NCBI GenBank assembly: GCA_943356485.1
Contig: CALRFD010000001.1
Span: forward strand, 137,716-201,715
Origin: Patescibacteria group bacterium
Lineage (GTDB): Bacteria > Patescibacteriota > Microgenomatia > Daviesbacterales > UBA10151
Direction of reading: 5' to 3'
DNA: 64,000 nt
Every line of letters begins with the position of its first letter. The stretch's first letter is position 1. Both the position numbers and the translations under genes were made by a program. Shown here one piece after another: positions 23,172-59,470 of the stretch. The notes beneath the pieces were generated by a model that was not told the origin of the DNA, did no database searches, and worked only from the letters and a program-made list of their open reading frames with translations.

Positions 23172-23177
23172 GTCTCT

Positions 23178-23243
23178 TCCCACCCTTCGGGTGGTTTAGC
23201 CCACCTTGCCGGTGAGGCAGACTTCGCACCTATTCTTTTTTGG
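23178..23243 (+). repeat. Copy A of a ~66-bp two-hairpin + U-tract element, about 90% identical to 59471-59536.
   Basis: CCACCCttcgGGTGG (UUCG tetraloop hairpin), TTGCCggtgaGGCAG hairpin, then CTTTTTTGG. Confidence 0.7.
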
Positions 23244-38138: not shown

Positions 38139-39914
38139 TTATGCTTTTTCTAAAAGCCGTGATTTGTTAGTTACCCTAAATTCCAATTTCTTACCAAACA
38201 TCAAAGATGTCTGGGCATCAATTGCCGGGAATGATGAAATGGTCACTAAAATTATCGGCAGTAATATCCACTGAAGGTAGGACCAGATCCTTCTAAATAA
38301 AGACCAATTTGCAGGTCTTTTGGGGGCAGTTTTTTCATGGACATATATTGTTGCAAAAAGTCCTAAAAATGCTGCTGATAAAATCCAGGAAGATATTATT
38401 GGTAAATTTACCGATAAGACTGAGGCTTTAAAGTTCGGGTTAACCAATGGGATAAATAAACTTCCAAATGTTACAAATATAGCCAAAAATCCCCATTTTA
38501 GATCACCCCAGATTTTAAAAAGTACCCGATCTGTTTTATCCCAAAATTCTATATCCTGGGTAAAATATTTTCTAACTATAAAAGGGATATGTTCAACTCC
38601 GTAAGCCCATCTTTTAATCTGCAAATATTGATTCTGAAAGGTTTTTAAAAGTGTGGCGTCCTGGACTGCGTCTGCAGATATGGGTAAAAAATGAGGTATA
38701 ACTTTATAATCACCATTAAAATGATAATATGCCTTCCAATAAAAACCTGAATCATCGTTTACCTTATCGGGGATCCAAAGGCCAATGTCGAGTAGCCCTT
38801 TTAGGCTCAGAGACATCGATGAGTAATTTATATATTTATCAGACCCAACCAGCTCGGCCATCTGCCAAAAAGATGTGCCGGTTGCCATCAGACGCATCGG
38901 TGTAGGGGTTTGCCAATAATTGTTATGATATAAAAATACTCCGGTAAAGGTACGCTTATCCCTCTCCTCAATTGGAGTTGATAAGTATTTATGTAAAGCC
39001 CCGGCTAAAAATTGCGGGTGTATACAAAAATCTGCGTCCAGTGTGGTTACAAAAACATCTTCAGTTTTTATCTTCTTTTCTTTCAAGCTGCTAACTAAAT
39101 GCTTTACCATCCAGTTTTTATTTGACCCTTGACCGGGAACTTCTCCTTCCAATCCGTAAGGATGGGTAGTGATAAATACTGCGCCAATTTTTTTCTCAAT
39201 AGTTTTTAAGAAAGCTTTTGTCTCCTCAATTTTTTTAGGGTCGTCTCTTTCTTCAAAGCCGACAGCTAAAAAAATCTTCTGTTTAGGAAAATCGGAATTG
39301 ATGATGGCGTTAAAGGTTGGCTTAAGAATATATAGAGCTTCTTTGTAGGTCGGAAGAAGGATGATTTGATAGTAGTTATCCCAATTGTCCGGGTAATCTT
39401 TTTTCAAAAGATTTAACCAATTTTGTTGCCTTGCCCAATCCATCTTTTTGTAGCCGATAATGATTAATGCCCCAATTTTTAAGGCATTAAGCAGCCAGTA
39501 AACATCTGCTATCAGGATTAAATAAGCAACTGCATAAGGTAAGGTAAATGAAAGCCAGATAGGAGAAGTCAGGGCGATCCAGGTCATTGCCCCGGGGAGA
39601 ATTTCCAAAAATCTCTCAAAACCATTCTCGTGTTTTAAGACAAATTCTTTTTCGTAAGTCTTAAATAAGATAAACCGCTGGGAAAGTAGATGATGAATAA
39701 TCAATCCTATGCCGGAGCCAATTAAAAAAAATCCAAGCAAAACATTAACCCCTCCGTAAAATAAAAGGTTTCCGGAAAAGCCAAAAAAAGTTCCAGCAAT
39801 TATCAGGATAAATCCGAGAAGACTATAGCGGATTTTCTTGATTAAAGTTTGAAAAATTGTAGACAGGTAGAAGAAAGAGAGCATGCCGATGAAAAACATT
39901 AAGATAATTCGCAT
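38139..39914 (-). CDS. Processive GT2-family beta-glycosyltransferase (cellulose/chitin-synthase-like) with flanking transmembrane domains.
   Basis: LAVGFEERDD, TTLDADFCIHPQFL (DxD), QIKRWAYGVEH (QxxRW) and transmembrane helices at both ends. Confidence 0.8.
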   Translation of the reverse strand: MRIILMFFIGMLSFFYLSTIFQTLIKKIRYSLLGFILIIAGTFFGFSGNLLFYGGVNVLLGFFLIGSGIGLIIHHLLSQRFILFKTYEKEFVLKHENGFERFLEILPGAMTWIALTSPIWLSFTLPYAVAYLILIADVYWLLNALKIGALIIIGYKKMDWARQQNWLNLLKKDYPDNWDNYYQIILLPTYKEALYILKPTFNAIINSDFPKQKIFLAVGFEERDDPKKIEETKAFLKTIEKKIGAVFITTHPYGLEGEVPGQGSNKNWMVKHLVSSLKEKKIKTEDVFVTTLDADFCIHPQFLAGALHKYLSTPIEERDKRTFTGVFLYHNNYWQTPTPMRLMATGTSFWQMAELVGSDKYINYSSMSLSLKGLLDIGLWIPDKVNDDSGFYWKAYYHFNGDYKVIPHFLPISADAVQDATLLKTFQNQYLQIKRWAYGVEHIPFIVRKYFTQDIEFWDKTDRVLFKIWGDLKWGFLAIFVTFGSLFIPLVNPNFKASVLSVNLPIISSWILSAAFLGLFATIYVHEKTAPKRPANWSLFRRIWSYLQWILLPIILVTISSFPAIDAQTSLMFGKKLEFRVTNKSRLLEKA

Positions 39915-39936
39915 AACTTAACTTTAAGTTTACCCA

Positions 39937-39959
39937 GTTGAAGCTAAGAAAGCAACTAA
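39937..39959 (+). repeat. 23-bp direct repeat GTTGAAGCTAAGAAAGCAACTAA, left copy.
   Basis: Exact second copy at 42291-42313. Confidence 0.8.
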
Positions 39960-39989
39960 CCTGGATTTACTCTTTGTTATAATAAAAAG

Positions 39990-41543
39990 ATGGATGGAGT
40001 TAGTAGAGAGGTAGAGTTAATAAATGTAGTGCCAGAAGCAGAAGCTTTTAATGTGAGTAAATACGAGAGCATGTCTAATCTTATGGATAGATTCAAAAAT
40101 ATTTTTACGGATAGTAGTGCGCGAAATTTTTTAGGAGACGTTCGGGAAAATAGAGAAATATTAAGTGAATCTTTAAAACATGACCAATATGTGCTACCAA
40201 CCCTTCAAATTATCAGAACAATTCAAAGAGCTGGAAATAATGATCGTTTACATGAACAGATGTATGAGTTTAGAAAACTTGGTCACGAGTTATTAGCTGA
40301 TAACTTATTGGGTATTGATCAGGCAGTACAAAGATTAAATGATCCATCTTGCCTGCAACTTGCAATGAAGTTAGTAGCTAATAGGTTCACAGAAAGAATA
40401 TATTTTAAAGAAGATTTTCCTTCAGAAGGGATAGGCTTTCTTATTAGACACTTTGAAGAAGGACTAAGAATAAACGGTAACTTTGTTGATTTAGAAGCTC
40501 AGGGTAGAACCTCGTTTCCTATAAACTATCAGTATCTAGCTTGTTGTCTGTTTGAAAGTATGGATGTTAGTCAACAAGATAAAGCAATACAAATGTTAAA
40601 ACATGCAGTTGAGAGTCCTGACATCAAATTGTCTGCTCTAAGCATTATAAGTGGTTTAATAGGTGATGATAAAACTCCCAGCAAGGTACAAACTGAGATA
40701 CGAACGGGTCTAATAGATCCAATGATGGAAAAGTTTGGTCTTGATTATGATAAGTTATTAAAGTCATGGTCAATGATTGGTAATGGAAGATCAGATACTT
40801 ATTTTTATACGCGGGTTAATCTAAATGAAATATTTTCTTTGGAAGAGTCCCACCCAGGAATTTGTAAAGTTTTAATGAATGAATTTGGCATAAGTAATTT
40901 TAACCGTTACCCAAAGGAATTATTAATAGATATGTACGAGCAAAGGGATAATTCAAATATTCCCTATGGTTTAATGCTATATCCAAAAGCAGATCATAAC
41001 GGCGCTTTTTATCCCATTAAAGGATTAATCGGTGAATTTTACCAGCAATTAAAGGGATTGGGGTATGGTATGCGTATATATGAAACTGGGAGTAAAAACG
41101 AGATAGCCAGGGCATTTATAAGTTCAAAAAAACGCTACGGCTTAGATAATAAGCCGGCTTTTGTAATTCTGGCAGGTCATGGAAATCCTAACTCAATTGT
41201 CTTTGGTGAGATTCAAAATGGAGGCATTGTAATAGATAAAAAAAATGCAAGAAGTATAATAAGTCAAGCTGATTTTGAAGGAAAAGGAGTTAAAAGAATT
41301 GGTGAGTTTATCGCAGATAATGCAAATATTGTCCTTATTTCCTGTTCAACAGGGGTTGTTGGAGGAATAGCGCAGAAAATTTCTGATACTTACTCTGGAG
41401 TTGTAGTTACTGCACCTGAAGTTGATACTAACCTAAGCGGTTTGGAAGTTACAAGAGATGATCAGGGTGCGTTAAAGTTTACAGTTTCATACCACTCTGG
41501 TGACACTAAATTCTTTACCGACGGTAAAAATATTCAGTCCTGA
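39990..41543 (+). CDS. Hypothetical 517-aa protein. The C-terminal region has a His/Cys dyad arranged like caspase/CHAT-type peptidases (inference).
   Basis: FVILAGHGNPNSIVFG...(~53 aa)...NIVLISCSTG. A hydrophobic strand then HG, and a hydrophobic strand then SC, resemble the catalytic dyad of clan CD peptidases. The N-terminal 350 aa are unassigned. Confidence 0.4.
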   Translation: MDGVSREVELINVVPEAEAFNVSKYESMSNLMDRFKNIFTDSSARNFLGDVRENREILSESLKHDQYVLPTLQIIRTIQRAGNNDRLHEQMYEFRKLGHELLADNLLGIDQAVQRLNDPSCLQLAMKLVANRFTERIYFKEDFPSEGIGFLIRHFEEGLRINGNFVDLEAQGRTSFPINYQYLACCLFESMDVSQQDKAIQMLKHAVESPDIKLSALSIISGLIGDDKTPSKVQTEIRTGLIDPMMEKFGLDYDKLLKSWSMIGNGRSDTYFYTRVNLNEIFSLEESHPGICKVLMNEFGISNFNRYPKELLIDMYEQRDNSNIPYGLMLYPKADHNGAFYPIKGLIGEFYQQLKGLGYGMRIYETGSKNEIARAFISSKKRYGLDNKPAFVILAGHGNPNSIVFGEIQNGGIVIDKKNARSIISQADFEGKGVKRIGEFIADNANIVLISCSTGVVGGIAQKISDTYSGVVVTAPEVDTNLSGLEVTRDDQGALKFTVSYHSGDTKFFTDGKNIQS

Positions 41544-41622
41544 TGGTTTTCTTTTACTTACCAATCAAACATTATTGTTTGACTATTGACAGATTATACA
41601 AAAACAATATAATTGTATTATT

Positions 41623-41913
41623 ATGCAAAGGATTATTGTTCAGGTTCCTATGACGAGAGAGTTAAAAGATAAAGCAGAGATTATTTCCGCTGACTTAGGA
41701 TTTTCTTCTTTACAAGAAACTATTAGAGTGCTTTTAACCAAGCTTTCCAAAAAAGAGTTTAGTCTAAGAGTAGAAGAAGAGCAGGAACAGCCAAGTCAAT
41801 ATTTACTTTCTGCAATGAAAAAGGCAAGAGCAAACAGAAAGACGGGCAAAGCATCTCCTGTTTTTGATAATGCCAAAGACGCACTTAAATTTTTAGATGA
41901 ACAAGGTATATGA
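41623..41913 (+). CDS. Putative RHH/RelB-like antitoxin.
   Basis: IIVQVPMTRELKDKAEIISADLGFSSLQETIRVLL. Stop overlaps the start of the downstream RelE/ParE gene (ATGA). Confidence 0.5.
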   Translation: MQRIIVQVPMTRELKDKAEIISADLGFSSLQETIRVLLTKLSKKEFSLRVEEEQEQPSQYLLSAMKKARANRKTGKASPVFDNAKDALKFLDEQGI

Positions 41914-42197
41914 AAATTCAGTATGATCCTGATTTTCTCAAAATTCTTAAAAAAGCAGATGTAAGAATCCGTAAGAGTTTAAGAATAAGAATAGAAATAT
42001 TTTTAAAAAATCCCTCTGATCCAAAACTTAATAATCATAGGCTTAAAGATGAATATGCAGGATATCGGAGCATAGATATTACTGCAGATTATCGTGTAAT
42101 TTATGAGGAGATAAATGAAGGCAATGAATCAATTGCCTATTTTTTATTCATTGGTAGGCATGAATTACTTTACGGTCATCTAAAGAAGATTAGTTAG
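41910..42197 (+). CDS. Type II toxin, RelE/ParE superfamily (second copy).
   Basis: FLKNPSDPKLNNHRLKDEYAGYRSIDITADYRVIYEE, paralogous to the 7007..7255 toxin. Confidence 0.7.
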   Translation: MKIQYDPDFLKILKKADVRIRKSLRIRIEIFLKNPSDPKLNNHRLKDEYAGYRSIDITADYRVIYEEINEGNESIAYFLFIGRHELLYGHLKKIS

Positions 42198-42290
42198 GTA
42201 TAAAGTTTGCCATAACTTTTCCTTTTTGGATTCCTTATTGTATATTGGCATAATTATAGATTAATAGTATTATGGTATAAGAATTATACT

Positions 42291-42313
42291 GTTGAAGCTA
42301 AGAAAGCAACTAA
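42291..42313 (+). repeat. 23-bp direct repeat GTTGAAGCTAAGAAAGCAACTAA, right copy.
   Basis: Exact match to 39937-39959. Confidence 0.8.
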
Positions 42314-42355
42314 GGGGAGTTTTTAGTTAGCCAGTGAGCTTAAACACCTTTTTCA

Positions 42356-42952
42356 TCAGTTTGATTGTACCCACCGAAAGTAAGTCTTTTTATCCTGTTG
42401 GTGTTCAATATAACCTTCAGGTTTAAATTGTGCAGTTTCTAGGGTAACAACGCCACTGTAAAGAGTATATTTTGTATTTAATCCCGGATATCCGCCAGAT
42501 TGCCGCATCTCTTCTTTCTTGCTGCCAAGTTGTACTACGTCGTCTGCAATATCTGTAATCCCTAATTCTTCTAAACAAGCCCGCTTGATATTTGCTAAGA
42601 TATTTTCATCTCCTGGTTTTAACTTTTCCGATAAAGATCCGCCTAGATTTCTTTTTCTCTGCCTTCCGTCTGTAAATTCCTGATGATCTTCATAAAGGTG
42701 AAATTCAATACCGCTATGAAGGTCTTGGTACTTAACATCCACAATTACAACTCTAATCTCTCTTAGTAACTGCCCATTTTCCTCTTTAGTAAGTATACTT
42801 TCTCTGTTAAGCAGTTCAGTTGCGAGGTGTCTGATCGTCCTGGCGCTGCCTTTTCCCCATAAAGCTAGATCAATACCCGCAAGAGTTAATTGCTGACGTA
42901 GCGCAAATTCTTTATCAGATAATACTCTTTCAGATACAGATAATTTTTCCAT
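42356..42952 (-). CDS. Hypothetical protein (198 aa).
   Basis: ORF only. Its start overlaps/abuts the upstream ORF 42954..43811. Confidence 0.4.
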   Translation of the reverse strand: MEKLSVSERVLSDKEFALRQQLTLAGIDLALWGKGSARTIRHLATELLNRESILTKEENGQLLREIRVVIVDVKYQDLHSGIEFHLYEDHQEFTDGRQRKRNLGGSLSEKLKPGDENILANIKRACLEELGITDIADDVVQLGSKKEEMRQSGGYPGLNTKYTLYSGVVTLETAQFKPEGYIEHQQDKKTYFRWVQSN

Positions 42953-42953
42953 T

Positions 42954-43811
42954 TTAATCTGATGGGTCTTTTTCCATTAATTTGACCTGCCACAGTTTTG
43001 AATCAGTTTTAGTTTTACTAATAGATAAATAGAATCTTTGACCGGTTTTTGTATATTCAAAAGTAACTATTTGATTATTAATATCGGGTAACTTATCTGA
43101 TAATACCCATTCCTCTGGTTTGTCACTATCTCTTTCAGTCAGGAAAATAGAGATCTTTGGGACTATGTTGCCTTCTGAATCCTTGAAAGTATTAAACCTG
43201 ATGTTGGTAATAGTAGAAGTGTTATCATTGACTTTCCAATTAAGGCCTCTTCCAGCCTCGATTACAAACGGGCTTTGCAGACCGTTTTGTTCTGTATACT
43301 TAAGATTAGGATAGTTTGGTTCGCGAAAAATTCTCCAGCCGGTTGCGGATACAGTCGAGGGCTTTAATCCCAAAGTATGATTTTTCTCAAAATCGATAGC
43401 GGCATTTTTATCTGCCTCTTTTCTTTGCTGCTGACTTACTCTGGAGGCCTCTTCTCTAGCTGCGCTGGCTTCCGGACTGGTATAATCATTTATCCCAAAT
43501 CCGATTGTAGTCCCAAGATAAGCCCCTGCGATAATTGCTGCTAGAACTTTAAGTTTAGCTTTAACGTTTCTTCTGACTATGAGGACTCTGGTTCTTTTTA
43601 ATTCCAGCTCAAACTCTCTTAATCTGGCGAATTGCTCTTGTGTATCCAGAGTGTGTTTTATTGCCTGGTCATAACCTTTTGGATAGCCAGGATCTTGTTT
43701 AATAGCCTGTAATACTCTTCTGGTGGCTTGGATATCTTCTATAGAGACCCTAGCGACAAACGTCTCCTTTTTTTCTAAAAAATTTATTTCTTTTGGTTCT
43801 CTATCAGCCAT
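42954..43811 (-). CDS. Hypothetical single-pass membrane protein (285 aa).
   Basis: Transmembrane helix LKVLAAIIAGAYLGTTIGFGI. The extracytoplasmic C-terminal domain is unassigned. Confidence 0.4.
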   Translation of the reverse strand: MADREPKEINFLEKKETFVARVSIEDIQATRRVLQAIKQDPGYPKGYDQAIKHTLDTQEQFARLREFELELKRTRVLIVRRNVKAKLKVLAAIIAGAYLGTTIGFGINDYTSPEASAAREEASRVSQQQRKEADKNAAIDFEKNHTLGLKPSTVSATGWRIFREPNYPNLKYTEQNGLQSPFVIEAGRGLNWKVNDNTSTITNIRFNTFKDSEGNIVPKISIFLTERDSDKPEEWVLSDKLPDINNQIVTFEYTKTGQRFYLSISKTKTDSKLWQVKLMEKDPSD

Positions 43812-43901
43812 TGGCGTATTATAAGTATGTAATGAGCTAAAGTCAAACTATGGGGTTATCACAATTTGACTTATTAGTCCCATAAGAATATAATCCCCTG
43901 C

Positions 43902-45221
43902 ATGGTTGAAGCAAGTAGGGATTATAAACCAATAGATTTACTCGCTACGTTAGGAGAACCCTTTAAAGGAGAACTTAATGACTCCCCTGATGCATTTCAA
44001 ATGGTTGAGGCTGCGAAATGGACGATGAGGAATGTAGCAAGAAGGGTTGTTGGAAGGGAAAGATTAGCCTCGCAAACTTTACTTGCTCTTTTAACCAGAG
44101 AGCACCAGCTAATTTTTTCAAGAACAGGGACAGCTAAGTCTTTATATGCAGAGACTGTTTTCAGTCAATTTACCGCAGAAACTTTTTCAATACAATTCAC
44201 GACTGGAACTACTGAAGAGGCGGTTGTAGGAGCTTATGATTTAAATAAATTTAGGGAGGGCACTATTTGGCACAATACTGAAAAATCTTTAGTTACTGCT
44301 GATTTTGCATTTTTGGATGAATTCATGGATGCAAATGATATGGTACTGCGGTCAATCTTAGGGATTTTAAATGAAAGAAAATTTTCCAAAGGAAAACAAT
44401 TTGAGCAAGCCAGGCTTCATAGCGCTATAGCTACCACCAATTATGTCAGAAGGTCAGAGATGTCAGAGGCAGTACTTGACAGGTTTCTTTTCCAAGCCAG
44501 GATTAACCCTGAAACAAGTCCGTTGGATCAGCTTTTGATTGATAGGGTTTATTCTCTGCAAAACGGGAGAGTTAGTAAACCTGAAAATCCGGTACCGCTA
44601 GACGTTTTAAAGGAGCTGTCAAAGATGGTTAAGGGTGAGGGGGATACTAATATTAGTGCTTCACACTCTCTACTTTTTTTAAAAAATCAACTAATTAAAA
44701 ATTATATCGATATGTTGTTTGACCAAAGACGTGAGCAAAATCAAAATGCGGAAAAACTTTATATTAGCCCGAGGAAATTGGCAAAAGCCAGGGATGTTTT
44801 AAATGCCTCAGCCATACTGCAAGGCAGGTTTGATGCATCCGTGGAAGATCTACCTGCATTAAGGTTTATTTTAACAACTATTTCAGGGAGCGAAGAGGAT
44901 GGTGATTCGGAGGAGGAAATTTTTTATCAGGCTTTAGATTATACGCTGACTTCTTTTAGCCGGGAAGATCTTAATGATGTTGAAAAAATTATGTTTACCT
45001 ATGAATATTATGAGGCTTATAAAGACGGTAAGTTAGTTGAAGCAGTCAAAGCCAATCTTCCTGGTATATTTAGAATAGTGATGAGCCTTTTCGGTATTGT
45101 ATCCTGGCAGGATGTTAATAAGGAAGTATTTTTGCAAACCCTTCAGGCTATGAAAATTAAGAGTCCTGCAGTAGTGCAACTTAGGGATAACCTGAAAGAT
45201 AAGATTATCAAATATGGCTAA
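43902..45221 (+). CDS. MoxR-family AAA+ ATPase, RavA-like, with a degenerate Walker A.
   Basis: [18 protein letters not shown] aligns to RavA [45 protein letters not shown] aligns to [36 protein letters not shown] aligns to EALYDRMLI. Confidence 0.7.
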   Translation: [439 protein letters not shown]

Positions 45222-46578
45222 AGAGAGAGAAAGTTCAGTCAGAGGAGTAAATGAAAATTTGTCGGATTTTTATAAATCCTGGGGAGCATTTGATATCTTT
45301 GAGAAAACGCTGGATCAGCTACCTCCGGACTGGTTAAAAATCTTAAACATTGCCAGAAATCTACTAGACGGGAAAAGAATTCCTGGAGTCAACCTTCCTT
45401 CAACTGTCATGGCTCTGGTAGAGAAGGATCAGGAAATAGTTTTTGAAAAAAGATATATGACCAGAAAATGGCAGCAAAAATCCATCCTACCAGCCACCAG
45501 CATTGATGTTAAAAATCTGGAAGATTTATCTCAATTGCCTAAAGTATTGCCAGCCCACCTCCTGCTGCAGGGCGAAGCGCCGGAAATCTTTGCTTATCGG
45601 GCTCTGACTCATTCTCTACCAATAGCCGAGATGCAAAAACCAAGAGCAATAACAGAAGAAAAATCAGAAACCTTGATGGAACTTGTACCAAAGGCAAGAG
45701 AAAGAACTTCTATGCGGCAAAGAGTCTATGCTTTAATGGATGTTTCTCTCTCAATGAAATCTAATTACAAATTAATCTTTTCCAAAGCTGTCATGTTGGC
45801 TTATTTGGCAAAAGCCCACGAGGAAGGATCAGAGGTTTATTTCCGAGCTTTTGCCGGCAGTGTCGGGGATCTGGTAGCCTGCATCTCTCCTGAGGATTTT
45901 CCTGCTTTGGCAAAGAGGATCTTAGGATACAGGGTCTATCATGGTACTGATATTAGGTATGCTCTCACAACTGCAGTTGAAGATATTTCTAGGATGGAGA
46001 GATTAACTGACAGTAGAAGAGCTAAAACTGAGGTTTTGCTAATATCAGATGGTGAAAGCTATACCCCTATACCCCTGATGCCTAAAAATATAGCTTTGCA
46101 TACCCTGCATTTAGTCGGAGGAGGCGAGGAGTTTATATTAGATAAAGAGTTAAGGCAAATGAGTAACACTTACACCAGGATAGATACAGGAAATTTAATG
46201 CTGCCAAGTATTTCAGAGGAGGCTTGGTTTATGTTTGAGGAGATTGAGAGGCTGGAAGATCAAACAAAAGGTCTGACAGATTCAGAGATGAAATACGATA
46301 GAAGACTGCAGCAAAGAGTTGAAGCTATAAGAAAGCATACAGAAGCATATAGAAAAATCGATTCCAGCGAGAAAGTTAGGGAAAATGCCGGCAGAGCGCA
46401 AAAACTGCATGATAAAGTTTCCTTAGAAAAAGCAGAGGAAAGATTAAAGAAAAAATTAGAATTAATAAGGTATTTTATAAAAAAACTTATGCAAAAAATT
46501 AAGTCTTTCCGATTGCCTAAATTTGACAGAAAGAAAGTATTAGCCGGGAGTTTATTTGATTTTAGAATAAAGGACTAG
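45214..46578 (+). CDS. von Willebrand factor A (vWA) domain protein, ViaA-like partner of the MoxR ATPase.
   Basis: MIDAS motif in RVYALMDVSLSM (DxSxS), then a Thr and LLISDGES. Overlaps the MoxR gene by 8 nt (coupled). Confidence 0.65.
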   Translation: MAKERESSVRGVNENLSDFYKSWGAFDIFEKTLDQLPPDWLKILNIARNLLDGKRIPGVNLPSTVMALVEKDQEIVFEKRYMTRKWQQKSILPATSIDVKNLEDLSQLPKVLPAHLLLQGEAPEIFAYRALTHSLPIAEMQKPRAITEEKSETLMELVPKARERTSMRQRVYALMDVSLSMKSNYKLIFSKAVMLAYLAKAHEEGSEVYFRAFAGSVGDLVACISPEDFPALAKRILGYRVYHGTDIRYALTTAVEDISRMERLTDSRRAKTEVLLISDGESYTPIPLMPKNIALHTLHLVGGGEEFILDKELRQMSNTYTRIDTGNLMLPSISEEAWFMFEEIERLEDQTKGLTDSEMKYDRRLQQRVEAIRKHTEAYRKIDSSEKVRENAGRAQKLHDKVSLEKAEERLKKKLELIRYFIKKLMQKIKSFRLPKFDRKKVLAGSLFDFRIKD

Positions 46579-47521
46579 GATTACCTATTACCTTAACATT
46601 ATTTGTAGTTTGATTTGCTACTTCTTCCAAAGTTATTCCTTTTAACTCTGCAATCAGCCTTGCAATTTCTAAAACTGCAGATGGTTCGTTTCTCTGCCCC
46701 CGTTTGGATTGGAGAGGTAGGAAGGGGCAATCAGTCTCCAGGCAAATTTTATCCAAAGGCAGAATTTTAACAGCCTCTCTTAAGTATTCATTTTTAGGAT
46801 AGGTTAGAGTTCCTCCAAATGACACTAAAACATTAGACATTTTGAGTATTTGGTGAGTGGTTCTGGTCAAACCACTGTAGCAGTGGAAAATAGCCGGGTA
46901 ATCACCTATTAAATTTAACGTTTCATCCCAGGCTTCGCAGTTTTCTGGATTTTTAGAGCGGTCATCCCGGCAGTGAACTATTAAAGGTAAGTCTAGCTTT
47001 TTAGCCAGATCAATCTGGGCTTGAAAAAGTCTTCTTTGTAGCTCTTTTTCGTGATTGTGAGAAAGTTTACCGGTTCGACTGAGCTCACCGTCGAAGTCCT
47101 GAACTTGTTTCAGGGTGGCAATCTCTGTTTCTCTAAAGTAATAATCCAGCCCGCATTCCCCAACAGCGATAACCTTTTTCGGATTTTCTCTATAAATTTT
47201 TTCCAGTTGAGTAATGTCTTCGTTGACATTTTTGCAACGATCGTCGTATTTTTGTCCAGGTAAGGAATAATTTATAGCCTCATGCGGGTGAATACCGATT
47301 GTTGAATAAACCTTCAATCCTGGAATGTCTGACAGTTTACCGGTTCGACTGAGCTCACCGCCGAAGTCCTGAGCTTGTCGAAGGGCTTTTTTCGATGATT
47401 CAATATCTACCCCAACATTTATAATGGTAGTTACACTGGCATCAAGAGATCGTTTTATAACTTCATCAAAATCCGGTTTAAAACTGTCCCAATATAAATG
47501 GGCATGGGTGTCTATCAGCAT
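46562..47521 (-). CDS. tatD: TatD-family metal-dependent deoxyribonuclease. Carries two in-frame ~48-bp repeat insertions.
   Basis: MLIDTHAHLYW, GIHPHEA, AVGECGLDYY, LIVHCRDD and the C-terminal DCPFLPL. Duplicated inserts encode QDFGGELSRTGKLS and QDFDGELSRTGKLS. Confidence 0.85.
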   Translation of the reverse strand: MLIDTHAHLYWDSFKPDFDEVIKRSLDASVTTIINVGVDIESSKKALRQAQDFGGELSRTGKLSDIPGLKVYSTIGIHPHEAINYSLPGQKYDDRCKNVNEDITQLEKIYRENPKKVIAVGECGLDYYFRETEIATLKQVQDFDGELSRTGKLSHNHEKELQRRLFQAQIDLAKKLDLPLIVHCRDDRSKNPENCEAWDETLNLIGDYPAIFHCYSGLTRTTHQILKMSNVLVSFGGTLTYPKNEYLREAVKILPLDKICLETDCPFLPLQSKRGQRNEPSAVLEIARLIAELKGITLEEVANQTTNNVKVIGNPSPLF

Positions 47522-47612: not shown

Positions 47613-48302
47613 ATGACTAATATGAAACTAGCAGAAAGATTGTTAAAAATTTGGCAGCCAGGCGACTTTAAGCAGATTTTTGAAAAATTTTCCAATAAAA
47701 AGGAATTTATGGTCAAAAAGGGCACGGTTTTATTTAATGAAGGGCAGCCACTGGATAGGATCTTTTTCATAAAATCTGGTTTTGTTAAGTTATACCGTCT
47801 TTCAGAAGAAGGTCGGGAATCGATAATTTATCTATATGGTGCAGGACAGATTCTGGGGATAAGGGCGCTTACTTCTGAGGATGAATGTGCCAGGCATTTT
47901 GCAGAAGCAATAACTGATCTTGAAGTAGTAAGCATCACCCGCGGCGAATACCTTGAAGCTGTAGCAGAAAATCCTGAATATTTATTGGATCTTTTGCATG
48001 TTTTTATAGACAGATTAAATTATACAGAGAAAAAATTGACCGGATTTATTTTGACTGATACTGTGGCCAGAGTTGCCTTTTTCCTGTCAGATTGCGCCAC
48101 CCGTTTTGGGATCAGTAAAAAAGACACGGTGGAGTTGCCGATAGAATTAACCCATCAAAGAATAGCGGAGTTTGTGGGTTCTTTTAGGGAAACTGTCACT
48201 TTAGCAGTTCAAAAATTAGAACAGATGGGCATTATTAACATCAAAAAAAGTAAAGTAGCTATCCTGGATTTAAAAAAACTGCACAAGCTCGCCGGATTGT
48301 AA
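47613..48302 (+). CDS. Crp/Fnr-family transcriptional regulator (cNMP-binding + HTH).
   Basis: TVLFNEGQPLDRIFFIKSGFVKLYRLSEEGRE (cNMP fold) and the C-terminal HTH QRIAEFVGSFRETVTLAVQKLEQMGII. Confidence 0.8.
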   Translation: MTNMKLAERLLKIWQPGDFKQIFEKFSNKKEFMVKKGTVLFNEGQPLDRIFFIKSGFVKLYRLSEEGRESIIYLYGAGQILGIRALTSEDECARHFAEAITDLEVVSITRGEYLEAVAENPEYLLDLLHVFIDRLNYTEKKLTGFILTDTVARVAFFLSDCATRFGISKKDTVELPIELTHQRIAEFVGSFRETVTLAVQKLEQMGIINIKKSKVAILDLKKLHKLAGL

Positions 48303-48527
48303 GAAAGACTACTATTAAAAAGTAGTTACTACTACTGAACTAACCCCTTCTTTAAGGTTTAATGGTTTCATGATTACATTTATTTTTGCCAATATTTATC
48401 AAGCGATATCCTTACTTTTACGCCTGTATCCAGGTGAAGATTCCAAGACTTCTTCGACAGAGGAGATTAATCAGTTAAGACAGTACAGGTCTTTTCTAAA
48501 AAAATACGAACAGGAGAATAAAGAATA

Positions 48528-49892
48528 ATGTCAGTAACTGTTGAAACAATCGGATCAGAAGATTTATACAGAATGAGAAAAAGCCATCGGGTAGTAGTAA
48601 CCGGCATGGGTGCTGTTACTCCTTTAGGGCTTAATGTAGAGGATACCTGGCAAAACCTTATTGCCGGAAAATCAGGTATTCAAAGAATCAGTACCAGTGA
48701 TTGGGAAGGCAAAGTGGATGCAAAAAACAGCGAGGTTGATATTGCCGGTTTGGTTATGGGTTTTGATGCTTCAAAGTATATCCCAAGAAAAGAATTAAAC
48801 AGGATGCACAGATCAGCACAATTTTCTATTGTAGCTGGTCGAGAAGCTCTAATACAGGCTGGTTTATTTGATGCTTCAACAAAAATGGAAAAAGGTGCGA
48901 CTCCTCTTACAGGGGTAAGTCCTGAAGCATTTGGCGCGATTTTAGGAACTGGTATTGGAGGAGGTTCTGAAATAGCGGATATAGAAGATGTTATCCGGGA
49001 TAGAGGTGACTCGCGTGTTAGTCCTTTTGCCATGTTACTGCTTTTACCAGAAAGGGTAAGTACTGTTCCGAGTATGTGGCTTAGCTGTCAAGCTGAAGTA
49101 GGAGAGAAGACTGCTGCTTGTGCTTCCGGTGCGCAAGCAATTGCAGATGCATATAGAGTTTTAGAACGGGGAGAAGCAGATGTGATGTTAGCAGGTGGCA
49201 GTGAGGCAGCGGTTCATCGGGTAGCTCTATCCTCTTTTAATAATATGCATGCTTTAAATAATATAAGTAATGATAACCCAAAAGGAGCCAGTAGCCCTTT
49301 TGATCAAAAAGCCGCTGGCTTTGTGATGGGAGAGGGAGCAGGAGTACTTTGCTTAGAAACCTTAGAGCATGCATTAGGTAGAGGGGCAAATATTTTGGCA
49401 GAATTAGTAGGTTATAGTAATACAGCTGATGCTCATCATGACACAGCTCCCTTGCAGGCAGGGGCAGAGAGAGCTATCAGGAATGCCTTAGCTATGGCAG
49501 AGATTGATCCAAGTCAGGTTGACTATATTAATGCTCATGGTACTTCTACTCCTACTAATGATCCAAACGAACTGAAAGCTTTTAGAGCTGTTTTTGAAGA
49601 TAGCCTAGATGATATTTCAATCAGCTCTACTAAATCAGCCACAGGTCATTTACTGGGAGCAGGCGGAGGGATAGAAGCAGTTTTTTCTATCCAGGCTATC
49701 CTGGAAGGGATAGTGCCGCCAACGCTTAATTTACAAAATCCAATTAAAGAAGGTGAGGGATTAAATCTGGTACCTTTAGCCGCACAAAAAAGAGAAGTTA
49801 ATATAGCTATGTCTGATTCGCTTGGATTTGGCGGACTAAATTCAGTCTTAATTTTCAGAAGATTTCAGAAAAGTTATCAAGAGGTAGTCTAA
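48528..49892 (+). CDS. fabF: 3-oxoacyl-ACP synthase II (KAS II).
   Basis: VVVTGMGAVTPLG, active Cys in ACASGAQAIADA, and His residues in INAHGTSTPTND and KSATGHLLGAGG. Confidence 0.9.
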   Translation: MSVTVETIGSEDLYRMRKSHRVVVTGMGAVTPLGLNVEDTWQNLIAGKSGIQRISTSDWEGKVDAKNSEVDIAGLVMGFDASKYIPRKELNRMHRSAQFSIVAGREALIQAGLFDASTKMEKGATPLTGVSPEAFGAILGTGIGGGSEIADIEDVIRDRGDSRVSPFAMLLLLPERVSTVPSMWLSCQAEVGEKTAACASGAQAIADAYRVLERGEADVMLAGGSEAAVHRVALSSFNNMHALNNISNDNPKGASSPFDQKAAGFVMGEGAGVLCLETLEHALGRGANILAELVGYSNTADAHHDTAPLQAGAERAIRNALAMAEIDPSQVDYINAHGTSTPTNDPNELKAFRAVFEDSLDDISISSTKSATGHLLGAGGGIEAVFSIQAILEGIVPPTLNLQNPIKEGEGLNLVPLAAQKREVNIAMSDSLGFGGLNSVLIFRRFQKSYQEVV

Positions 49893-49898
49893 AAAATT

Positions 49899-50648
49899 AT
49901 GCCAACATTGGAATTAGAAGGAAAAGTAGCAATAGTAACAGGTGGAACAAGGAGTATTGGCAGGGCTATAACAGACAAGCTTTTAGAACATGGGGTCAAA
50001 GTTGCCTTTAATTCCCTTAATCCGGATGGTGAAGAGGGGAAACAGTTAGTAGAAGAGCATGGGGAGAATGTGTTGTGGGTTCCGGGAGATATTTCCAGTC
50101 CTGAAACAGGTTCAGATTTGGTTAAGAAAACAATTGATAAGTTTGGCAGGGTTGATATCTTAGTTAATAATGCTGGAATTAACAGGGATACGTTATTAAT
50201 GAGGATGAGTGATGAAAAGTGGGATGAGGTTTTACAAGCTAATCTTTATGGCTCAATGAGGGTGACCAGGGCAGCTCTCCGGCCAATGCTAAGACAAGTT
50301 GAGGGCGGTTCTATTATTTTTATATCATCAGTAGCCGCGCGCGGTAATCCGGGACAAGCAAATTATGCCGCTTCAAAAGGAGGGGTGGAAGCATTTATGA
50401 GGGTTGTGGCTTTGGAGGGAGCAAGCCGTAATGTCAGGGCAAACGCGATAGCTCCTGGTCCGGTAGAAGAAACAGATATGCTGAATAATCTTAAACCGGA
50501 GCAAAGAGAAGCCCTTATAAATATGGTTCCTATGAGAAGAGCCATAAGAAGGGTGGAAGTTGCAAATACTGTTTTGTTTTTAGCCTCTAATCTGTCTTCC
50601 GGGATTACCGGACAGGTTATAAATGTAGATGGGGGGATGATTAGATAA
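49899..50648 (+). CDS. fabG: 3-oxoacyl-ACP reductase (SDR).
   Basis: VAIVTGGTRSIGRAI, NNAGI, YAASKGG (YxxxK) and IAPGPVET. Confidence 0.85.
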   Translation: MPTLELEGKVAIVTGGTRSIGRAITDKLLEHGVKVAFNSLNPDGEEGKQLVEEHGENVLWVPGDISSPETGSDLVKKTIDKFGRVDILVNNAGINRDTLLMRMSDEKWDEVLQANLYGSMRVTRAALRPMLRQVEGGSIIFISSVAARGNPGQANYAASKGGVEAFMRVVALEGASRNVRANAIAPGPVEETDMLNNLKPEQREALINMVPMRRAIRRVEVANTVLFLASNLSSGITGQVINVDGGMIR

Positions 50649-50650
50649 AT

Positions 50651-51916
50651 ATGGCTGAGCGGCCGATAGCTGTTATAACAGGAACTTCCAGGGATGTGGG
50701 GAGATATGTCTCTATTGGGTTAGCCCAGGCAGGTTATGATATTTTAGGCGTTTATAGAAATCCCCAACATGACCAGGATCAAGCAGACGTTATAAAGGAA
50801 GTTAAAGGTCATAAAGCCAGGATGGTTGCAGTCAGGGCAGACCTTTTAGATGAGGCTACGCCAGATTTAGTATTAGCAAAATTAGAGGATTTTGGGGGTA
50901 AAGTTAGCGCTTTTATTGATAATGCTGCCGGAGGGTATGGCTTAACTAAAGAGGAGGCAAGAGAGATAAATGTTGCTGCTCCGCAGAGATTAATGGATAA
51001 GCTAAGGAATAACTTAACGCCTGATGCGGCGGTAGTTTTTAACACCAGCATTCCTGCCCATTTATTTCACACCCTGCAAGCAGACGATATGGCATTAATG
51101 GGAGATTATGATTTCGTTGCCCGGAGTAAAAACGAAAGAGAAAGGATGCTAAGGTCAGAATTTGTTGGAGATGGACAAAGACTGGCGGTAGTAGTAGGTA
51201 ATGGGTTGGATGGCAGTTTTGTAACCAGGCTTTTGAAGGGGAAAAATAAGTCTTTTGTTAGCCGGATGTTGAGCCTTTCAGATACAGATTATTTCCCGAC
51301 AGTGATGGATATGGCAACTGCTGTGGTTAAGGTAGTAAGAGGCAACTATCCAACAGGACACACAGAATATGTAGGGATTGCGCCCCAACATCAGCTTTAT
51401 CCTTCCAGACCTTTGGGATCTAGTCTAATTGACGCTCCGCAAATGAGGGAAGGGTCGATTTTATCCAGAGAGGAAATTTATAATATTATCCCCCACCGCT
51501 GGCCGTTTATGTTTATTGGAGGAGTTTCGGAGGTTGAATATGGTAAAAGAGCTGTTGGTTCATTGGTAGACTTAACTAATCCTGATATTAATTGGACTGG
51601 CGGACATTTTCCAGACTATCCTTTGGTTCCAGGGGTAATTACTCAAGAAGCTTTGCAGCAGTTGGGGGCTTTGGTTGTTTTAGGTATGACTGAGCATAGA
51701 GGTATGACTGCTGTTTTAACAGGAGTTGATCAGATGCGTTTTTTAAGGCAGATTCTTCCAGGGGATAATATAAGATTGGAGGTTGAAGGCATGGACATTA
51801 CTGAAGAGAAAAGAAGGATTACAGGTATGGGTCATGTGCGGGCTTTAAATCACTTAGGTAAAGTAGCAGTAGAGGGTAGGGTGTCATTTGCGCTTATTAA
51901 TCCGGCTAAAAAATAA
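50651..51916 (+). CDS. Fusion protein: N-terminal SDR domain with a FabI-type Y-x6-K motif (putative enoyl-ACP reductase), plus a C-terminal FabZ-type hotdog 3-hydroxyacyl-ACP dehydratase.
   Basis: N-terminus IAVITGTSRDVGRYVSIGLAQAGY and YDFVARSK (cf. FabI YNVMGLAK). C-terminus IIPHRWPFMFIGGV...NWTGGHFPDYPLVPGVITQEALQQ (cf. FabZ LPHRYPFLLVD...FFQGHFP..PIMPGVL). Confidence 0.65.
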   Translation: MAERPIAVITGTSRDVGRYVSIGLAQAGYDILGVYRNPQHDQDQADVIKEVKGHKARMVAVRADLLDEATPDLVLAKLEDFGGKVSAFIDNAAGGYGLTKEEAREINVAAPQRLMDKLRNNLTPDAAVVFNTSIPAHLFHTLQADDMALMGDYDFVARSKNERERMLRSEFVGDGQRLAVVVGNGLDGSFVTRLLKGKNKSFVSRMLSLSDTDYFPTVMDMATAVVKVVRGNYPTGHTEYVGIAPQHQLYPSRPLGSSLIDAPQMREGSILSREEIYNIIPHRWPFMFIGGVSEVEYGKRAVGSLVDLTNPDINWTGGHFPDYPLVPGVITQEALQQLGALVVLGMTEHRGMTAVLTGVDQMRFLRQILPGDNIRLEVEGMDITEEKRRITGMGHVRALNHLGKVAVEGRVSFALINPAKK

Positions 51917-51976
51917 TATGAATATGATCTTGTTTTTTAAAAATTTAAATGTTAATGTCTGCTAAATTATAAAAAT

Positions 51977-53332
51977 ATGCCATCTACACCAGAAACATCA
52001 AAAGAAAAACGTTCATCCCTTTCCAGAGGTTTAGAAAAAGCAGCTAATCTAATAGACGCAGCTTCGGATAGATATGGGAAACCTACTGATAGAGAGATTG
52101 TAGAGAGGCTTTTGCAAAGAGGTATTAATACTGTTGTCAGCGTTCCCTGTTCTATAACTCAAACTATCGCCGCAGAGTGGCATGATCTGTCAAAAAAAGG
52201 ACAGATGCGTTTAATCAATACAGTAAATGAACATAGTGTAGTTGGGATAGCTGCCGGGGTTTGGTTTGGAACAGGCGAAGTGCCTCTTATACATATGCAG
52301 AATTCCGGAGTAACTAATTCTGCAGATGGTTTGATTTCTTTCGCTAAGGTTTATAAAATCCCGATACTGGAGATGGTTACCTGGCGGGGTAATGATTTAA
52401 CAGATGACAGTGAACCACACCAAGAGATAGGTAATATGACTGATGATTTAACGAAGTTACTGGCAGGTAAAGAGAATAACTTTGGGATGAAAGATGGCAG
52501 GGGGTTTATGCGAAGAATGGATGAGGCAATCAGGATGGCTCAGATGGGCGGAAGAAGCGTCATTAGACTTTCCCCTGCTGCTTTTAGAAAGAGCTACCCT
52601 ATGTCGCTCCCGGTTGATTTAGAGGAAGAAACTGAAGATAAAATTTTGGCTAGAAGAGAGAGAATTAAAGAAAGTAAAGGTAGTAATATTGGCGAGGTTC
52701 TTCGAAGATATAGGGTTTCCAGGGGAGAAGCCATGGCTGAGATTGTTCATCAACACCCTGATGCGGCGATTTTATTTGCTAATGGTTTTAACGCCAGGGA
52801 AGCTCAAGGAAGAAATACAATAGACCGGGAAGGTAATTTTTACAACGCCGGCTATATGGGTGGCACACTGGCTATTGGTTGGGGAATTGCCAAAGCAAAT
52901 CCTGATATAAAGGTGGTGGTTGTGGATGGTGATCAAAATGCCATGATGGGTAAGATGCATGAACATTTTGGAGATGGGGATTATCCGGATAACTTGAGTT
53001 GGTATATTTTAGATAACAGAATAGGCGCATCCGTTGGAACTTCAAAAAGCCTTAAGCTACCCTGGTGGTATTATGACGTAGCTCGTGTTATAAGGACTGT
53101 TCCTGATGAACCAGGCTCATTTAAGCTGCCTCGGGTAAAAGAGCAGGGAAAGTATTTTGATAAAGAGGCAGCTAAACAGCTGGCAAGAGCAAAAGAGATG
53201 GGTCCTTTACCTGTGCTAACATTGATGTTCCGCGACTGGATTGCAAAACAAACACAGGTTAATATAAGAGCCAATGTATCCAATAATGTTGCTGAGGTGT
53301 TAAGAGTTAATTCAGCTATGTTAGAAGCTTAA
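51977..53332 (+). CDS. Thiamine-diphosphate-dependent decarboxylase (sulfopyruvate/phosphonopyruvate-decarboxylase-like, fused alpha/beta halves).
   Basis: N-terminal half VVSVPCSITQTIAAEW...NEHSVVGIAAGVWFGTGEVPLIHMQNSGVTNSADGL (cf. ComD/Ppd). C-terminal half GGTLAIGWGIAKANPDIKVVVVDGDQNAMM (TPP-binding GDG-type motif). Confidence 0.6.
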   Translation: MPSTPETSKEKRSSLSRGLEKAANLIDAASDRYGKPTDREIVERLLQRGINTVVSVPCSITQTIAAEWHDLSKKGQMRLINTVNEHSVVGIAAGVWFGTGEVPLIHMQNSGVTNSADGLISFAKVYKIPILEMVTWRGNDLTDDSEPHQEIGNMTDDLTKLLAGKENNFGMKDGRGFMRRMDEAIRMAQMGGRSVIRLSPAAFRKSYPMSLPVDLEEETEDKILARRERIKESKGSNIGEVLRRYRVSRGEAMAEIVHQHPDAAILFANGFNAREAQGRNTIDREGNFYNAGYMGGTLAIGWGIAKANPDIKVVVVDGDQNAMMGKMHEHFGDGDYPDNLSWYILDNRIGASVGTSKSLKLPWWYYDVARVIRTVPDEPGSFKLPRVKEQGKYFDKEAAKQLARAKEMGPLPVLTLMFRDWIAKQTQVNIRANVSNNVAEVLRVNSAMLEA

Positions 53333-53334
53333 GT

Positions 53335-59395: not shown

Positions 59396-59470
59396 ATTTT
59401 ACTTTGCAAGTATAAAGTAAAATAAGGATTTCTATATTATAGATCACAAACGCCGATAATTTCCCAAATT

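Follow-up and report, generated by a model that had tools for sequence, protein, structure and literature searches.

The exact 23-bp direct repeat in the analysed stretch of DNA (64 kb, hereafter the window) is best read as an ordinary insertion scar, which leaves no ground for listing it among new mobile elements or regulatory boxes. We consider it probable, at roughly 0.6, that the repeats are a piece of the promoter of a core glycosyltransferase gene, GT2, which was duplicated as target when a foreign cassette inserted at a hot spot. It is the comparative alignment of GT2 upstream regions that resolves the "mystery" repeat as a duplicated core promoter.

The repeat and the bracketed segment

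The 23-mer GTTGAAGCTAAGAAAGCAACTAA was found in exact copies on the plus strand at 39937-39959 and 42291-42313 (23/23 identical), as an earlier note on this DNA had stated, and the 64-kb window holds no further copy on either strand with up to three mismatches. In a dinucleotide-shuffle control for the 23-mer, 0/100 shuffles gave any match. When flanks are included, 27/30 positions are identical (39930-39959 vs 42284-42313); the 4/7 matches outside the 23-mer could reflect a longer original duplication or chance. The copy-1 junction recurs in the independent assembly L019 and the copy-2 junction in L023 and L024, and misassembly is unlikely since both junctions are found in independent assemblies. 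Folded as single-stranded DNA, the repeat showed no notable structure, with z values of -1.2 and -0.6 relative to its shuffles. Two candidates for additional copies were rejected: a possible decayed third copy, where the island meets tatD, did not rise above background, and a match at 46318-46337 inside the vWA gene (18/18 with a 2-nt gap) was borderline, with 1/20 shuffled windows scoring as high, and was taken as chance.

Exactly three ORFs of 517, 96 and 95 aa lie between the copies, in line with the initial description of one 517-aa gene and a toxin-antitoxin (TA) pair bracketed by the repeats. The features of the GT2 upstream region and of the cassette are as follows.

38139..39914, minus strand: GT2 glycosyltransferase gene, 591 aa, a core gene with its ATG at 39914
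39927..39932, minus strand: second hexamer TAAACT of the GT2 block, separated from TTGCTT by 17 nt and from the ATG by 12 nt, with TA..(A)..T conserved in alignment A2
39937..39959, minus strand: repeat copy 1, exact match, reading TTAGTTGCTTTCTTAGCTTCAAC on this strand, with the TTGCTT hexamer (39955-39950) and 13 nt of spacer
39960..42290, plus strand: cassette between the repeats, 2,331 bp, GC 0.332, GC3 0.20-0.26
39990..41543, plus strand: 517-aa gene, with TGTTATAAT at 39975-39983, 6 nt before ATG
41566-41581, just upstream of the TA promoter: inverted repeat CAAACA-TTAT-TGTTTG, read from the sequence, a candidate operator
41586..41613, plus strand: consensus promoter of the TA operon, TTGACA-16-TATAAT, 12/12 match in the consensus scan
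41623..41913, plus strand: 96-aa putative antitoxin, assigned by position, with a 4-nt overlap between its stop and the start of the toxin gene
41910..42197, plus strand: 95-aa toxin of the RelE/ParE superfamily (YafQ/RelE-like), above the curated cut-offs of Pfam and NCBIfam
42283..42288, minus strand: TATAAT hexamer, 15 nt after the TTGCTT of copy 2, read from the sequence
42291..42313, minus strand: repeat copy 2, TTGCTT hexamer and spacer, between the toxin stop (42197) and the stop of the 198-aa gene (42356), two convergent genes

Copy 1 and the conserved block upstream of GT2

Homologues of GT2, which some sources name glycosyltransferase family 2, are 75-87% identical across Daviesbacteria. 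In about 45 Daviesbacteria relatives tatD lies directly upstream of GT2, with a gap of 12-113 bp in most, and the relatives have in common an upstream block composed of TTGCTT, 17 nt, TAAACT or TACACT, about 12 nt and the ATG. Alignment A2, comprising the GT2 upstream regions of 15 relatives together with copy 1, shows TTGCTTT to be invariant, with a TA.A.T hexamer 17 nt downstream, and places copy 1 in register with this conserved block; one relative (L030) has 22/23 bases of the repeat. Several positions of the 23-mer vary among relatives, though the two copies are identical here. The block is kept even where the end of tatD is up to 1.3 kb away and is therefore not conserved as tatD coding sequence. 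Since the 23-mer, read on the minus strand, corresponds to TTGCTT and 13 spacer bases of the block, copy 1 would represent the native GT2 promoter. The conserved block as a whole can be regarded as a putative promoter, judging from its conservation and its sigma-70 likeness; in the consensus scan TTGCTT matches TTGACA at 3/6 positions. The suggestion that the repeat could be a duplicated regulatory site is thus borne out insofar as the 23-mer is a piece of a promoter-like block. A generic box at many promoters, the scenario named in the earlier note as contradicting its proposal, was seen neither in the window nor in searches of GTDB representative genomes, viral contigs and JGI metagenome contigs.

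Copy 2, judged by its sequence, appears to be an orphan duplicate of this piece of the GT2 promoter, and its outer flanks have no similarity to the promoter block of the relatives. Together, the TTGCTT of copy 2 and the TATAAT hexamer next to it would form a promoter-like hybrid, putatively directed antisense into both TA genes and the 517-aa gene. This hybrid is absent from the list of the consensus scan because TTGCTT matches only 3/6 positions of TTGACA and its spacer is shorter than the 16 nt required.

The lineage-specific island and the tatD-GT2 junction

The cassette is the GT2-proximal part of an island extending from 39960 to about 46590 (6.6 kb), which is missing from all relatives with tatD-GT2 synteny; none of its seven proteins is encoded by any of the roughly 45 relatives with tatD-GT2. 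The remaining part and its edge comprise the following features.

42314..46590, no strand assigned: rest of the lineage-specific island, with the 198-aa, 285-aa, bpMoxR and vWA genes
42356-42952, minus strand: 198-aa gene
42954-43811, minus strand: gene of the 285-aa membrane protein
43902-45221, plus strand: bpMoxR, E-value 6.6e-32
45214-46578, plus strand: vWA, VWA_CoxE at 25.7 bits, just below the cut-off of 26.4
46562..47521, minus strand: tatD, TIGR00010 with E-value 8e-57 and 192.5 bits, just under the curated cut-off of 206, adjoining GT2 in relatives

The right edge of the island lies inside the last codons of tatD, whose tail departs from that of the relatives after ..NNVKVI. The rest of the island has a GC content of 0.384 and the flanking genes a GC3 of 0.29-0.37, and the shift in composition towards the cassette coincides exactly with the repeats. 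As originally proposed, the repeats do delimit an inserted cassette that carries a toxin gene. Terminal inverted repeats were not found at the cassette ends, and a Pfam search of the seven ORFs of the island and of 20 ORFs around it gave no family of recombinases or transposases. Searches of a phage collection with the 517-aa protein and of a plasmid collection with the cassette DNA gave no match to the cassette, the window yielded neither Rfam nor tRNA hits, and PADLOC had no match for the seven island proteins. No empty-site variant was recovered: when the 517-aa and 198-aa proteins were looked up as exact sequences, only contigs of the same arrangement came back.

The tatD-GT2 junction in Daviesbacteria is a recurrent insertion hot spot. 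Six loci of relatives carry inserts of 45-110 bp and eight carry gene inserts of 0.8-1.3 kb. Among these, L057 and L040 hold a two-gene, toxin-antitoxin-like cassette with 98-bp direct repeats of the tatD 3' end (77% identical), which indicates that cassette insertion with target duplication occurred there independently. Other inserts at the junction thus have a different repeat (the 98 bp of tatD) or none, and no common core. Duplication is no general rule, since in L020 a MazEF-like cassette inserted at another place, between UbiA and PEGA, is not bordered by repeats.

Gene content of cassette and island

The 517-aa protein is composed of a helical-repeat region (approximately residues 20-300, ARM/HEAT-like) and a caspase-like region (approximately 320-517, clan CD). 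In the predicted model, the C-terminal domain has the caspase-like alpha/beta fold of clan CD. H397-G398 follows a hydrophobic strand (391-395), and S451-C452 is placed such that C452 follows strand 446-450; both H397 and C452 are invariant in 40 aligned family members, making them a candidate catalytic His/Cys pair in the order of clan CD peptidases. D335, directly behind the first strand, is invariant as well and suggests, by analogy with metacaspases and gingipains, that the putative peptidase would favour basic residues. The idea of a caspase- or CHAT-like product is therefore supported by the fold of the predicted model and by the invariant dyad. The check proposed for the product of 39990..41543 gave a divided answer, with structure prediction returning the caspase-like fold and profile searches returning no curated family: there was no Pfam match even at an E-value of 10 and no meaningful NCBIfam match, a PDB profile search gave helical repeats only, and membership by sequence was found for none of C14, CHAT, C11, C13, C25, C50, C80 and DUF4347. 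The family is large: 3,320 or more sequence clusters (50% identity) match it, and its named homologues all belong to lineages of the candidate phyla radiation (CPR). In six family contexts the neighbours are mostly housekeeping genes, which speaks for a putative protease with a cellular role more than for an effector of defence.

For the bracketed TA module, the assignment of a RelE-type toxin held, the 95-aa product passing the cut-offs of Pfam ParE_toxin (27.1 bits vs 23) and of NCBIfam RelE_StbE (RelE/StbE, 33.3 vs 27.9), with additional weak matches to the structures of HP0892, HP0894 and YafQ. For its 96-aa putative antitoxin, searches of Pfam, NCBIfam, PADLOC and the PDB sequences gave nothing, so the RHH type named in the earlier note is putative.

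The 198-aa protein was considered as a Nudix protein on account of a partial Nudix-like box seen by eye, an assignment that we dropped, as searches of Pfam and of PDB sequences gave no match. Homologues of the 285-aa, MoxR and vWA proteins occur together again in L099 and L100, where the conserved third partner of MoxR-vWA is the homologue of the 285-aa protein. The proposed tie between a caspase-like effector and the MoxR/vWA pair was not recovered in either direction: MoxR/vWA genes are found in 0/6 of the 517-aa family contexts, and a member of the 517-aa family in 0/2 of the MoxR-vWA contexts (L099, L100). In the window itself, the 198-aa gene and repeat copy 2 separate the 517-aa gene from the MoxR-vWA module. 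The cassette genes are probably not one functional unit with this module.

Discussion

We propose a model in which extra DNA would gather at the tatD-GT2 junction, just upstream of the GT2 block, giving the 6.6-kb island in this lineage. The GT2-proximal part of this island would be a separate, AT-richer cassette of 2.33 kb, carrying the caspase-fold protein and a TA pair with its own promoter, and its insertion into the GT2 promoter would have duplicated 23 bp of target. The duplication would likely have arisen either by fill-in of staggered breaks or through one crossover at this short homology. Copy 1, which has kept its old second hexamer and its connection to the GT2 start, would maintain GT2 expression, and copy 2 would be a by-product, fused to a cassette-borne TATAAT and directed antisense into the cassette. 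The 23-bp direct repeats would in addition permit precise loss of the cassette, restoring one promoter. Since no genome with the MoxR-vWA part and without the cassette was found, we infer the order of these events. A length of 23 bp exceeds that of the usual transposon target duplication; no responsible enzyme can be named for the duplication.

An alternative we regard as unlikely would make the 23-mer an att-like core, with the recombinase encoded elsewhere and the cassette a non-autonomous element that targets the GT2 promoter and excises as a circle. Exact direct repeats around a compositionally distinct, TA-bearing cassette would be expected from such an element, and the recurrence of insertions at the tatD-GT2 junction fits as well. 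However, within the 64 kb inspected neither the island nor 20 neighbouring ORFs encode a recombinase, the other inserts at the junction carry the 98-bp tatD repeat (L057) or none in place of a shared core, and the repeat folds into nothing notable, so that nothing found here points to the site-specific, att-type recombination first considered for this locus. The 23-mer has 0 matches in JGI metagenome contigs. A 20-mer of it matched once among GTDB representative genomes and 10 times among viral contigs. Each of these matches lies inside coding sequence (VEAKKAT), in four unrelated genes with dissimilar flanks, one of them bacterial and the other three representing phage gene families, and they are coding coincidences. 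That a stretch of the repeat can coincide in this way would also be the one point in favour of a chance match, which, like an assembly artefact, we consider almost negligible, given that none of the shuffles matched, that a conserved element in relatives is the orthologue of copy 1 and that both junctions are present in separate assemblies.

It is also conceivable, and in our view quite unlikely, that copy 2 has been retained as a functional promoter, giving antisense RNA over the cassette genes or read-through to GT2 and thereby dampening or coupling expression. The arrangement TTGCTT-15 nt-TATAAT on the minus strand (42309-42283) would allow for this, as would the fact that the copies are still identical at 23 bases where relatives differ at several. 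However, a recent event explains the identity equally well, the 15-nt spacer is short, and there is no conserved comparator. This possibility addresses retention of copy 2 and not its origin, and is compatible with duplication of the GT2 promoter piece upon insertion. Very unlikely, finally, is a wider reading in which the junction would be a dedicated, integron-like capture platform without recognisable integrase, sometimes duplicating its target, combined with a new CPR-wide clan CD family that has a helical-repeat sensor domain. Integron cassettes do share with this locus a promoter-proximal array of unrelated cassettes, including a TA pair, with repeated sequence between them. At this locus, by contrast, an integrase and an attC-like folded site are both lacking, and the repeat, made of host promoter sequence, occurs just twice. 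If the junction were such a capture site, unrelated cassettes (TA pairs, conflict-type modules, enzymes) would be added serially upstream of a fixed promoter.

Insertion of a foreign cassette with duplication of the GT2 promoter piece has its closest parallels in small genomic islets that bear type II TA genes and are flanked by duplicated target, which likewise consist of a short foreign segment of RelE/ParE type in a variable spot between core genes, flanked by direct repeats of host sequence. Here, in contrast to those islets, there is no integrase, tRNA target or transposase, the target is part of a promoter, and an additional 517-aa gene is present. Integrase-mediated elements have the same identical direct repeats at both ends, but the cassette has no recombinase nearby and its repeat no shared core elsewhere; from transposons and IS elements it differs by the lack of inverted repeats at its ends and of a transposase in the island ORFs. 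With the clan CD families (C14, CHAT, C11 clostripain, C25 gingipains, C50 separase, C80 MARTX CPD) and DUF4347, the 517-aa protein shares the predicted fold and the His-Gly and Ser-Cys motifs, while this putative peptidase stands outside the curated families and carries an N-terminal ARM/HEAT-like fusion. The rest of the island resembles the MoxR-vWA ternary conflict systems (PMC7159879) in its bpMoxR ATPase with the ..GTAKS variant of Walker A, followed by vWA, and in a membrane-spanning third component (285 aa). Among those systems, caspase-like domains occur as fusions with the VMAP or vWA component, and a conventional effector is lacking from the beta-propeller class (Kaur et al. 2020, PMC7159879). 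The island vWA, in turn, has no match to a beta-propeller or other extra domain, and the caspase-fold gene is separate here, would lie in a separate later insertion and is unlinked elsewhere.

For a cassette to insert and duplicate its target is nothing out of the ordinary. The repeatedly hit junction in Daviesbacteria is a natural place for studying the gain of accessory genes in small genomes, and the caspase-fold family, unnamed, large and without a match in the family libraries searched, is worth keeping.

Results and discussion

The repeat pair and the cassette between its copies

The 23-mer GTTGAAGCTAAGAAAGCAACTAA occurs exactly on the forward strand at 39937-39959 (copy 1) and 42291-42313 (copy 2), while a third copy with up to three mismatches is absent from both strands of the 64-kb window and 100 shuffles yielded 0 matches. 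The earlier observation of a unique exact pair bracketing a 517-aa gene and a toxin-antitoxin pair is thereby confirmed. Including flanks, the copies agree at 27/30 positions, and both repeat junctions are present in independent assemblies. Three ORFs lie in the 2,331 bp between the repeats, hereafter the cassette; the list also gives the promoter-like sites, that of GT2 lying outside the cassette:

39915-39932, promoter-like TAAACT preceding GT2 (591-aa glycosyltransferase gene)
39975-39989, promoter-like TGTTATAAT preceding the 517-aa gene
39990-41543, 517-aa ORF
41608-41622, promoter-like TATAAT preceding the antitoxin gene
41623-41913, 96-aa ORF
41910-42197, 95-aa ORF

The 95-aa product clears the curated thresholds of both Pfam ParE_toxin and NCBIfam RelE/StbE. 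The 96-aa product, without a match in any family or structure library searched, is a putative antitoxin on the basis of its position, its 4-nt overlap with the toxin gene and its promoter, a perfect TTGACA-16-TATAAT at 41586-41613. All three promoter-like sites end merely 6-12 nt ahead of the start codon, which suggests leaderless or nearly leaderless mRNAs for the 517-aa gene, the antitoxin gene and GT2.

The cassette is part of a seven-gene island (39960 to ~46590), which continues with genes for a 198-aa, a 285-aa, a bpMoxR and a vWA protein. The stretch between the repeats has a GC content of 0.332, compared with 0.384 across the remainder of the island and 0.383 across the window; the three cassette genes have a GC3 of 0.20-0.26, and neighbouring genes one of 0.29-0.37. 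The compositional change coincides with the repeats, making the cassette a separate layer of the island.

The repeat as a duplicated piece of a predicted host promoter

Homologues of the 591-aa protein, named glycosyltransferase family 2 by some sources, share 75-87% identity, with named organisms belonging to Candidatus Daviesbacteria or Microgenomates. GT2 directly follows tatD in two looked-up relatives and 43/68 metagenome loci (~45 in all), and the gene order beyond it (121-aa gene, GT4 gene, UbiA and more) matches the window from 38135 down to ~33650. In the window, ~6.6 kb separates tatD (46562-47521) from the GT2 start at 39914, and none of the seven island proteins has a homologue in any of the ~45 tatD-GT2 loci. 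Since the tatD protein departs from its relatives just in the last few residues, the island is taken to end on the right near 46590.

Wherever a relative's sequence covered the 110 nt ahead of GT2, we extracted this region, and we aligned 15 of these regions with both window copies. All share a block with consensus ATTTGCTTTCTGAGGCTnAAnnAnGTAAACTTAA, followed by ~10 nt and the ATG, in which an invariant TTGCTTT is followed by a 17-nt spacer and a TA.A.T hexamer. This block contains the tatD stop codon in many relatives. TatD coding is nevertheless ruled out as the cause of its conservation, because the block is equally conserved where tatD ends 80-1,280 bp farther upstream (L020, L030, L034, L036, L039, L045, L046, L051, L057, L063). 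From position and form, the block is predicted to be the GT2 promoter.

On the minus strand the window 23-mer reads TTAGTTGCTTTCTTAGCTTCAAC, i.e. the TTGCTT hexamer and 13 spacer bases of this block; the same place in L030 reads TTATTTGCTTTCTTAGCTTCAA. Copy 1 runs on into TGGG-TAAACT-12 nt-ATG, precisely the continuation seen in relatives, and can thus be considered the predicted native GT2 promoter. Copy 2 follows the 3' flank of the 198-aa gene and runs on into AGTATAATTC..., unrelated to relatives. The repeat is therefore a duplicated piece of the predicted host promoter, not a sequence imported by a mobile element, which supports the earlier proposal of a duplicated regulatory site.

Alternative readings and recurrent insertion at the junction

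The exact repeats had also been taken as possible att-like sites of site-specific recombination. This reading is not supported: recombinase and transposase families are absent from the seven island and 20 flanking ORFs, the cassette ends carry no terminal inverted repeats, and the repeat shows no notable folding as single-stranded DNA. It is further weakened by L057 and L040, where a two-gene cassette (74 aa and 138 aa) lies between tatD and GT2. In size and arrangement this cassette is toxin-antitoxin-like, and 98 bp of the tatD 3' end are directly repeated on its two sides (75/98 identity; 9075-9172 and 9860-9957 in L057, the same in L040), the downstream copy being a decayed pseudo-fragment with in-frame stops. 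Insertion with target duplication has thus occurred independently at this junction, and the duplication of a different segment argues against a single fixed recombination core. A generic regulatory box is argued against as well. Within the source genome the count of two copies covers the 64-kb window, beyond which more may exist. The 23-mer has 0 occurrences in JGI metagenome contigs, and its 20-mer core is found elsewhere in coding sequence only, in one bacterial gene and three phage gene families (L008-L018), always in frame as VEAKKAT, so that exact-word matches of this AT-rich, coding-like 20-mer can be coincidences. Within the vWA gene (46318-46337, minus strand), TGCTTTCTTATAGCTTCAAC matches 18/18 repeat bases with a 2-nt insertion; as 1/20 shuffled windows scored equally high, this is probably chance. 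Scans of the window for tRNA genes and Rfam families were negative.

Inserts are present just 5' of the conserved GT2 block in many relatives. Six loci (L020, L051, L030, L028, L041, L045) carry GC-rich palindromic inserts of 45-110 bp at the junction, five (L034, L036, L039, L061, L063) carry ~1.2 kb encoding a 362-410-aa product with a CxxxCxxC motif, radical-SAM-like by eye, and L046 carries 1.0 kb with one 308-aa gene; flanking repeats of at least 12 nt were found at none of the latter six. At another site, between the genes for UbiA and a PEGA-domain protein, L020 has a PemK/MazE-type (MazEF-like) pair (9418-9980) without flanking direct repeat; the two surrounding genes overlap each other in L021 and in the window.

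Other repeats and variable stretches were also observed. TatD (minus strand; 319 aa vs 281-283 aa in relatives with called genes) contains a 63-nt GC-rich element twice, at 47053-47115 and 47323-47385 (86% identical, 270 nt apart), each adding 13-15 residues in frame (..DFGGELSRTGKLS..) at sites gapped in relatives. A 66-nt GC-rich repeat (23177-23242 and 59470-59535; 86% identical, 36 kb apart) and the palindromic 20-mer CCTGCCTGCCGGCAGGCAGG, present four times (2478, 2649, 13632, 23355), resemble small palindromic elements in dispersed positions and are similar to the short GC-rich inserts at the tatD-GT2 junction of relatives. A second stretch differing from relatives (47613-54512), between tatD and the methionyl-tRNA synthetase gene, encodes a Crp-type regulator, ketoacyl synthase, short-chain reductase, FabA-like fusion, TPP enzyme, Cu-oxidase_4 protein and NUDIX protein; in L020 and L021 the synthetase gene adjoins tatD or is one gene off.

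The 517-aa family and the MoxR-vWA module

A word-indexed search returned 43 homologues of the 517-aa protein, none with a Pfam domain on record; the few with named organisms are all CPR (Daviesbacteria, Pacebacteria, Adlerbacteria, Staskawiczbacteria). Among 1.84 billion cluster representatives, a profile search found 3,320 that match with E <= 1e-3, of which 1,195 reach E <= 1e-30. Invariant in 40 aligned members are R306, Y307, D335, G338, H397, G398, S451, C452, G455 and P476. The AlphaFold2 model is confident (pLDDT 88.9, pTM 0.86), all-helical over residues ~20-300 and of alternating strands and helices over 320-517, with strand 391-395 leading to H397 and strand 446-450 to C452. The caspase-like fold of the model and the invariant His/Cys pair bear out the fold proposed previously. 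Because sequence methods link the protein to no curated peptidase family, we describe its fold as clan-CD-like and its His/Cys pair as conserved, and we infer peptidase activity. By analogy with metacaspases and gingipains, the invariant Asp335, placed just past the first strand, may indicate that basic residues are preferred.

The earlier note had further likened the locus to conflict systems with a caspase-like effector beside MoxR and vWA proteins. Such a MoxR-linked effector is not supported. MoxR homologues 52-59% identical to that of the window lie in two other Microgenomates loci, with a vWA homologue next and a divergent homologue of the 285-aa membrane protein ahead, and both lack homologues of the 198-aa, 517-aa and toxin-antitoxin proteins. 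This three-gene module of a ~290-aa membrane protein, divergent from bpMoxR, and then a ~455-aa vWA protein recurs in Microgenomates:

window 42954-46578, three-gene module
L099 6013-9728, three-gene module
L100 6185-9917, three-gene module

Conversely, 0/6 contexts examined for 517-family members contain MoxR, vWA or a toxin-antitoxin pair; the neighbours there include NUDIX and PGK; Fic, DUF87 ATPase and relaxase; dNK and dUTPase; RuvA and S20; and NUDIX, Fmt and Def. In L007 (1682-9848), the 40% identical member P0004 adjoins a Fic protein, a DUF87/TraG-like ATPase and a Replic_Relax protein, a mobile-element-like setting that differs from the housekeeping contexts of other members. The window MoxR Walker A motif SRTGTAKS is close to the GXXXTAKS variant of the beta-propeller and FtsH ternary systems, and the Pfam bpMoxR model refers to the beta-propeller class; the vWA protein gave no sign of a beta-propeller. 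According to Kaur et al. 2020 (PMC7159879), caspase-like domains occur as fusions to the VMAP or vWA component, and the beta-propeller class lacks conventional effectors. The proximity of the 517-aa gene to MoxR/vWA is best explained as two unrelated insertions at one hot spot.

Proposed history

In its simplest form, the history of the locus comprises two steps. An island ending in the 198-aa gene would have sat directly upstream of the GT2 promoter, and the 2,331-bp cassette would then have entered this promoter between the spacer and the second hexamer, duplicating 23 bp by its own insertion. Since an intermediate genome was not found, the order of these steps is one we infer. Copy 1 would drive GT2, and copy 2 would be a by-product, from which antisense transcription may run into the cassette. 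Through the repeats the cassette could be lost precisely, and the toxin-antitoxin pair may stabilise it against such an event. The repeat itself is probably an ordinary insertion scar, and the 517-aa family is the more interesting by-product.
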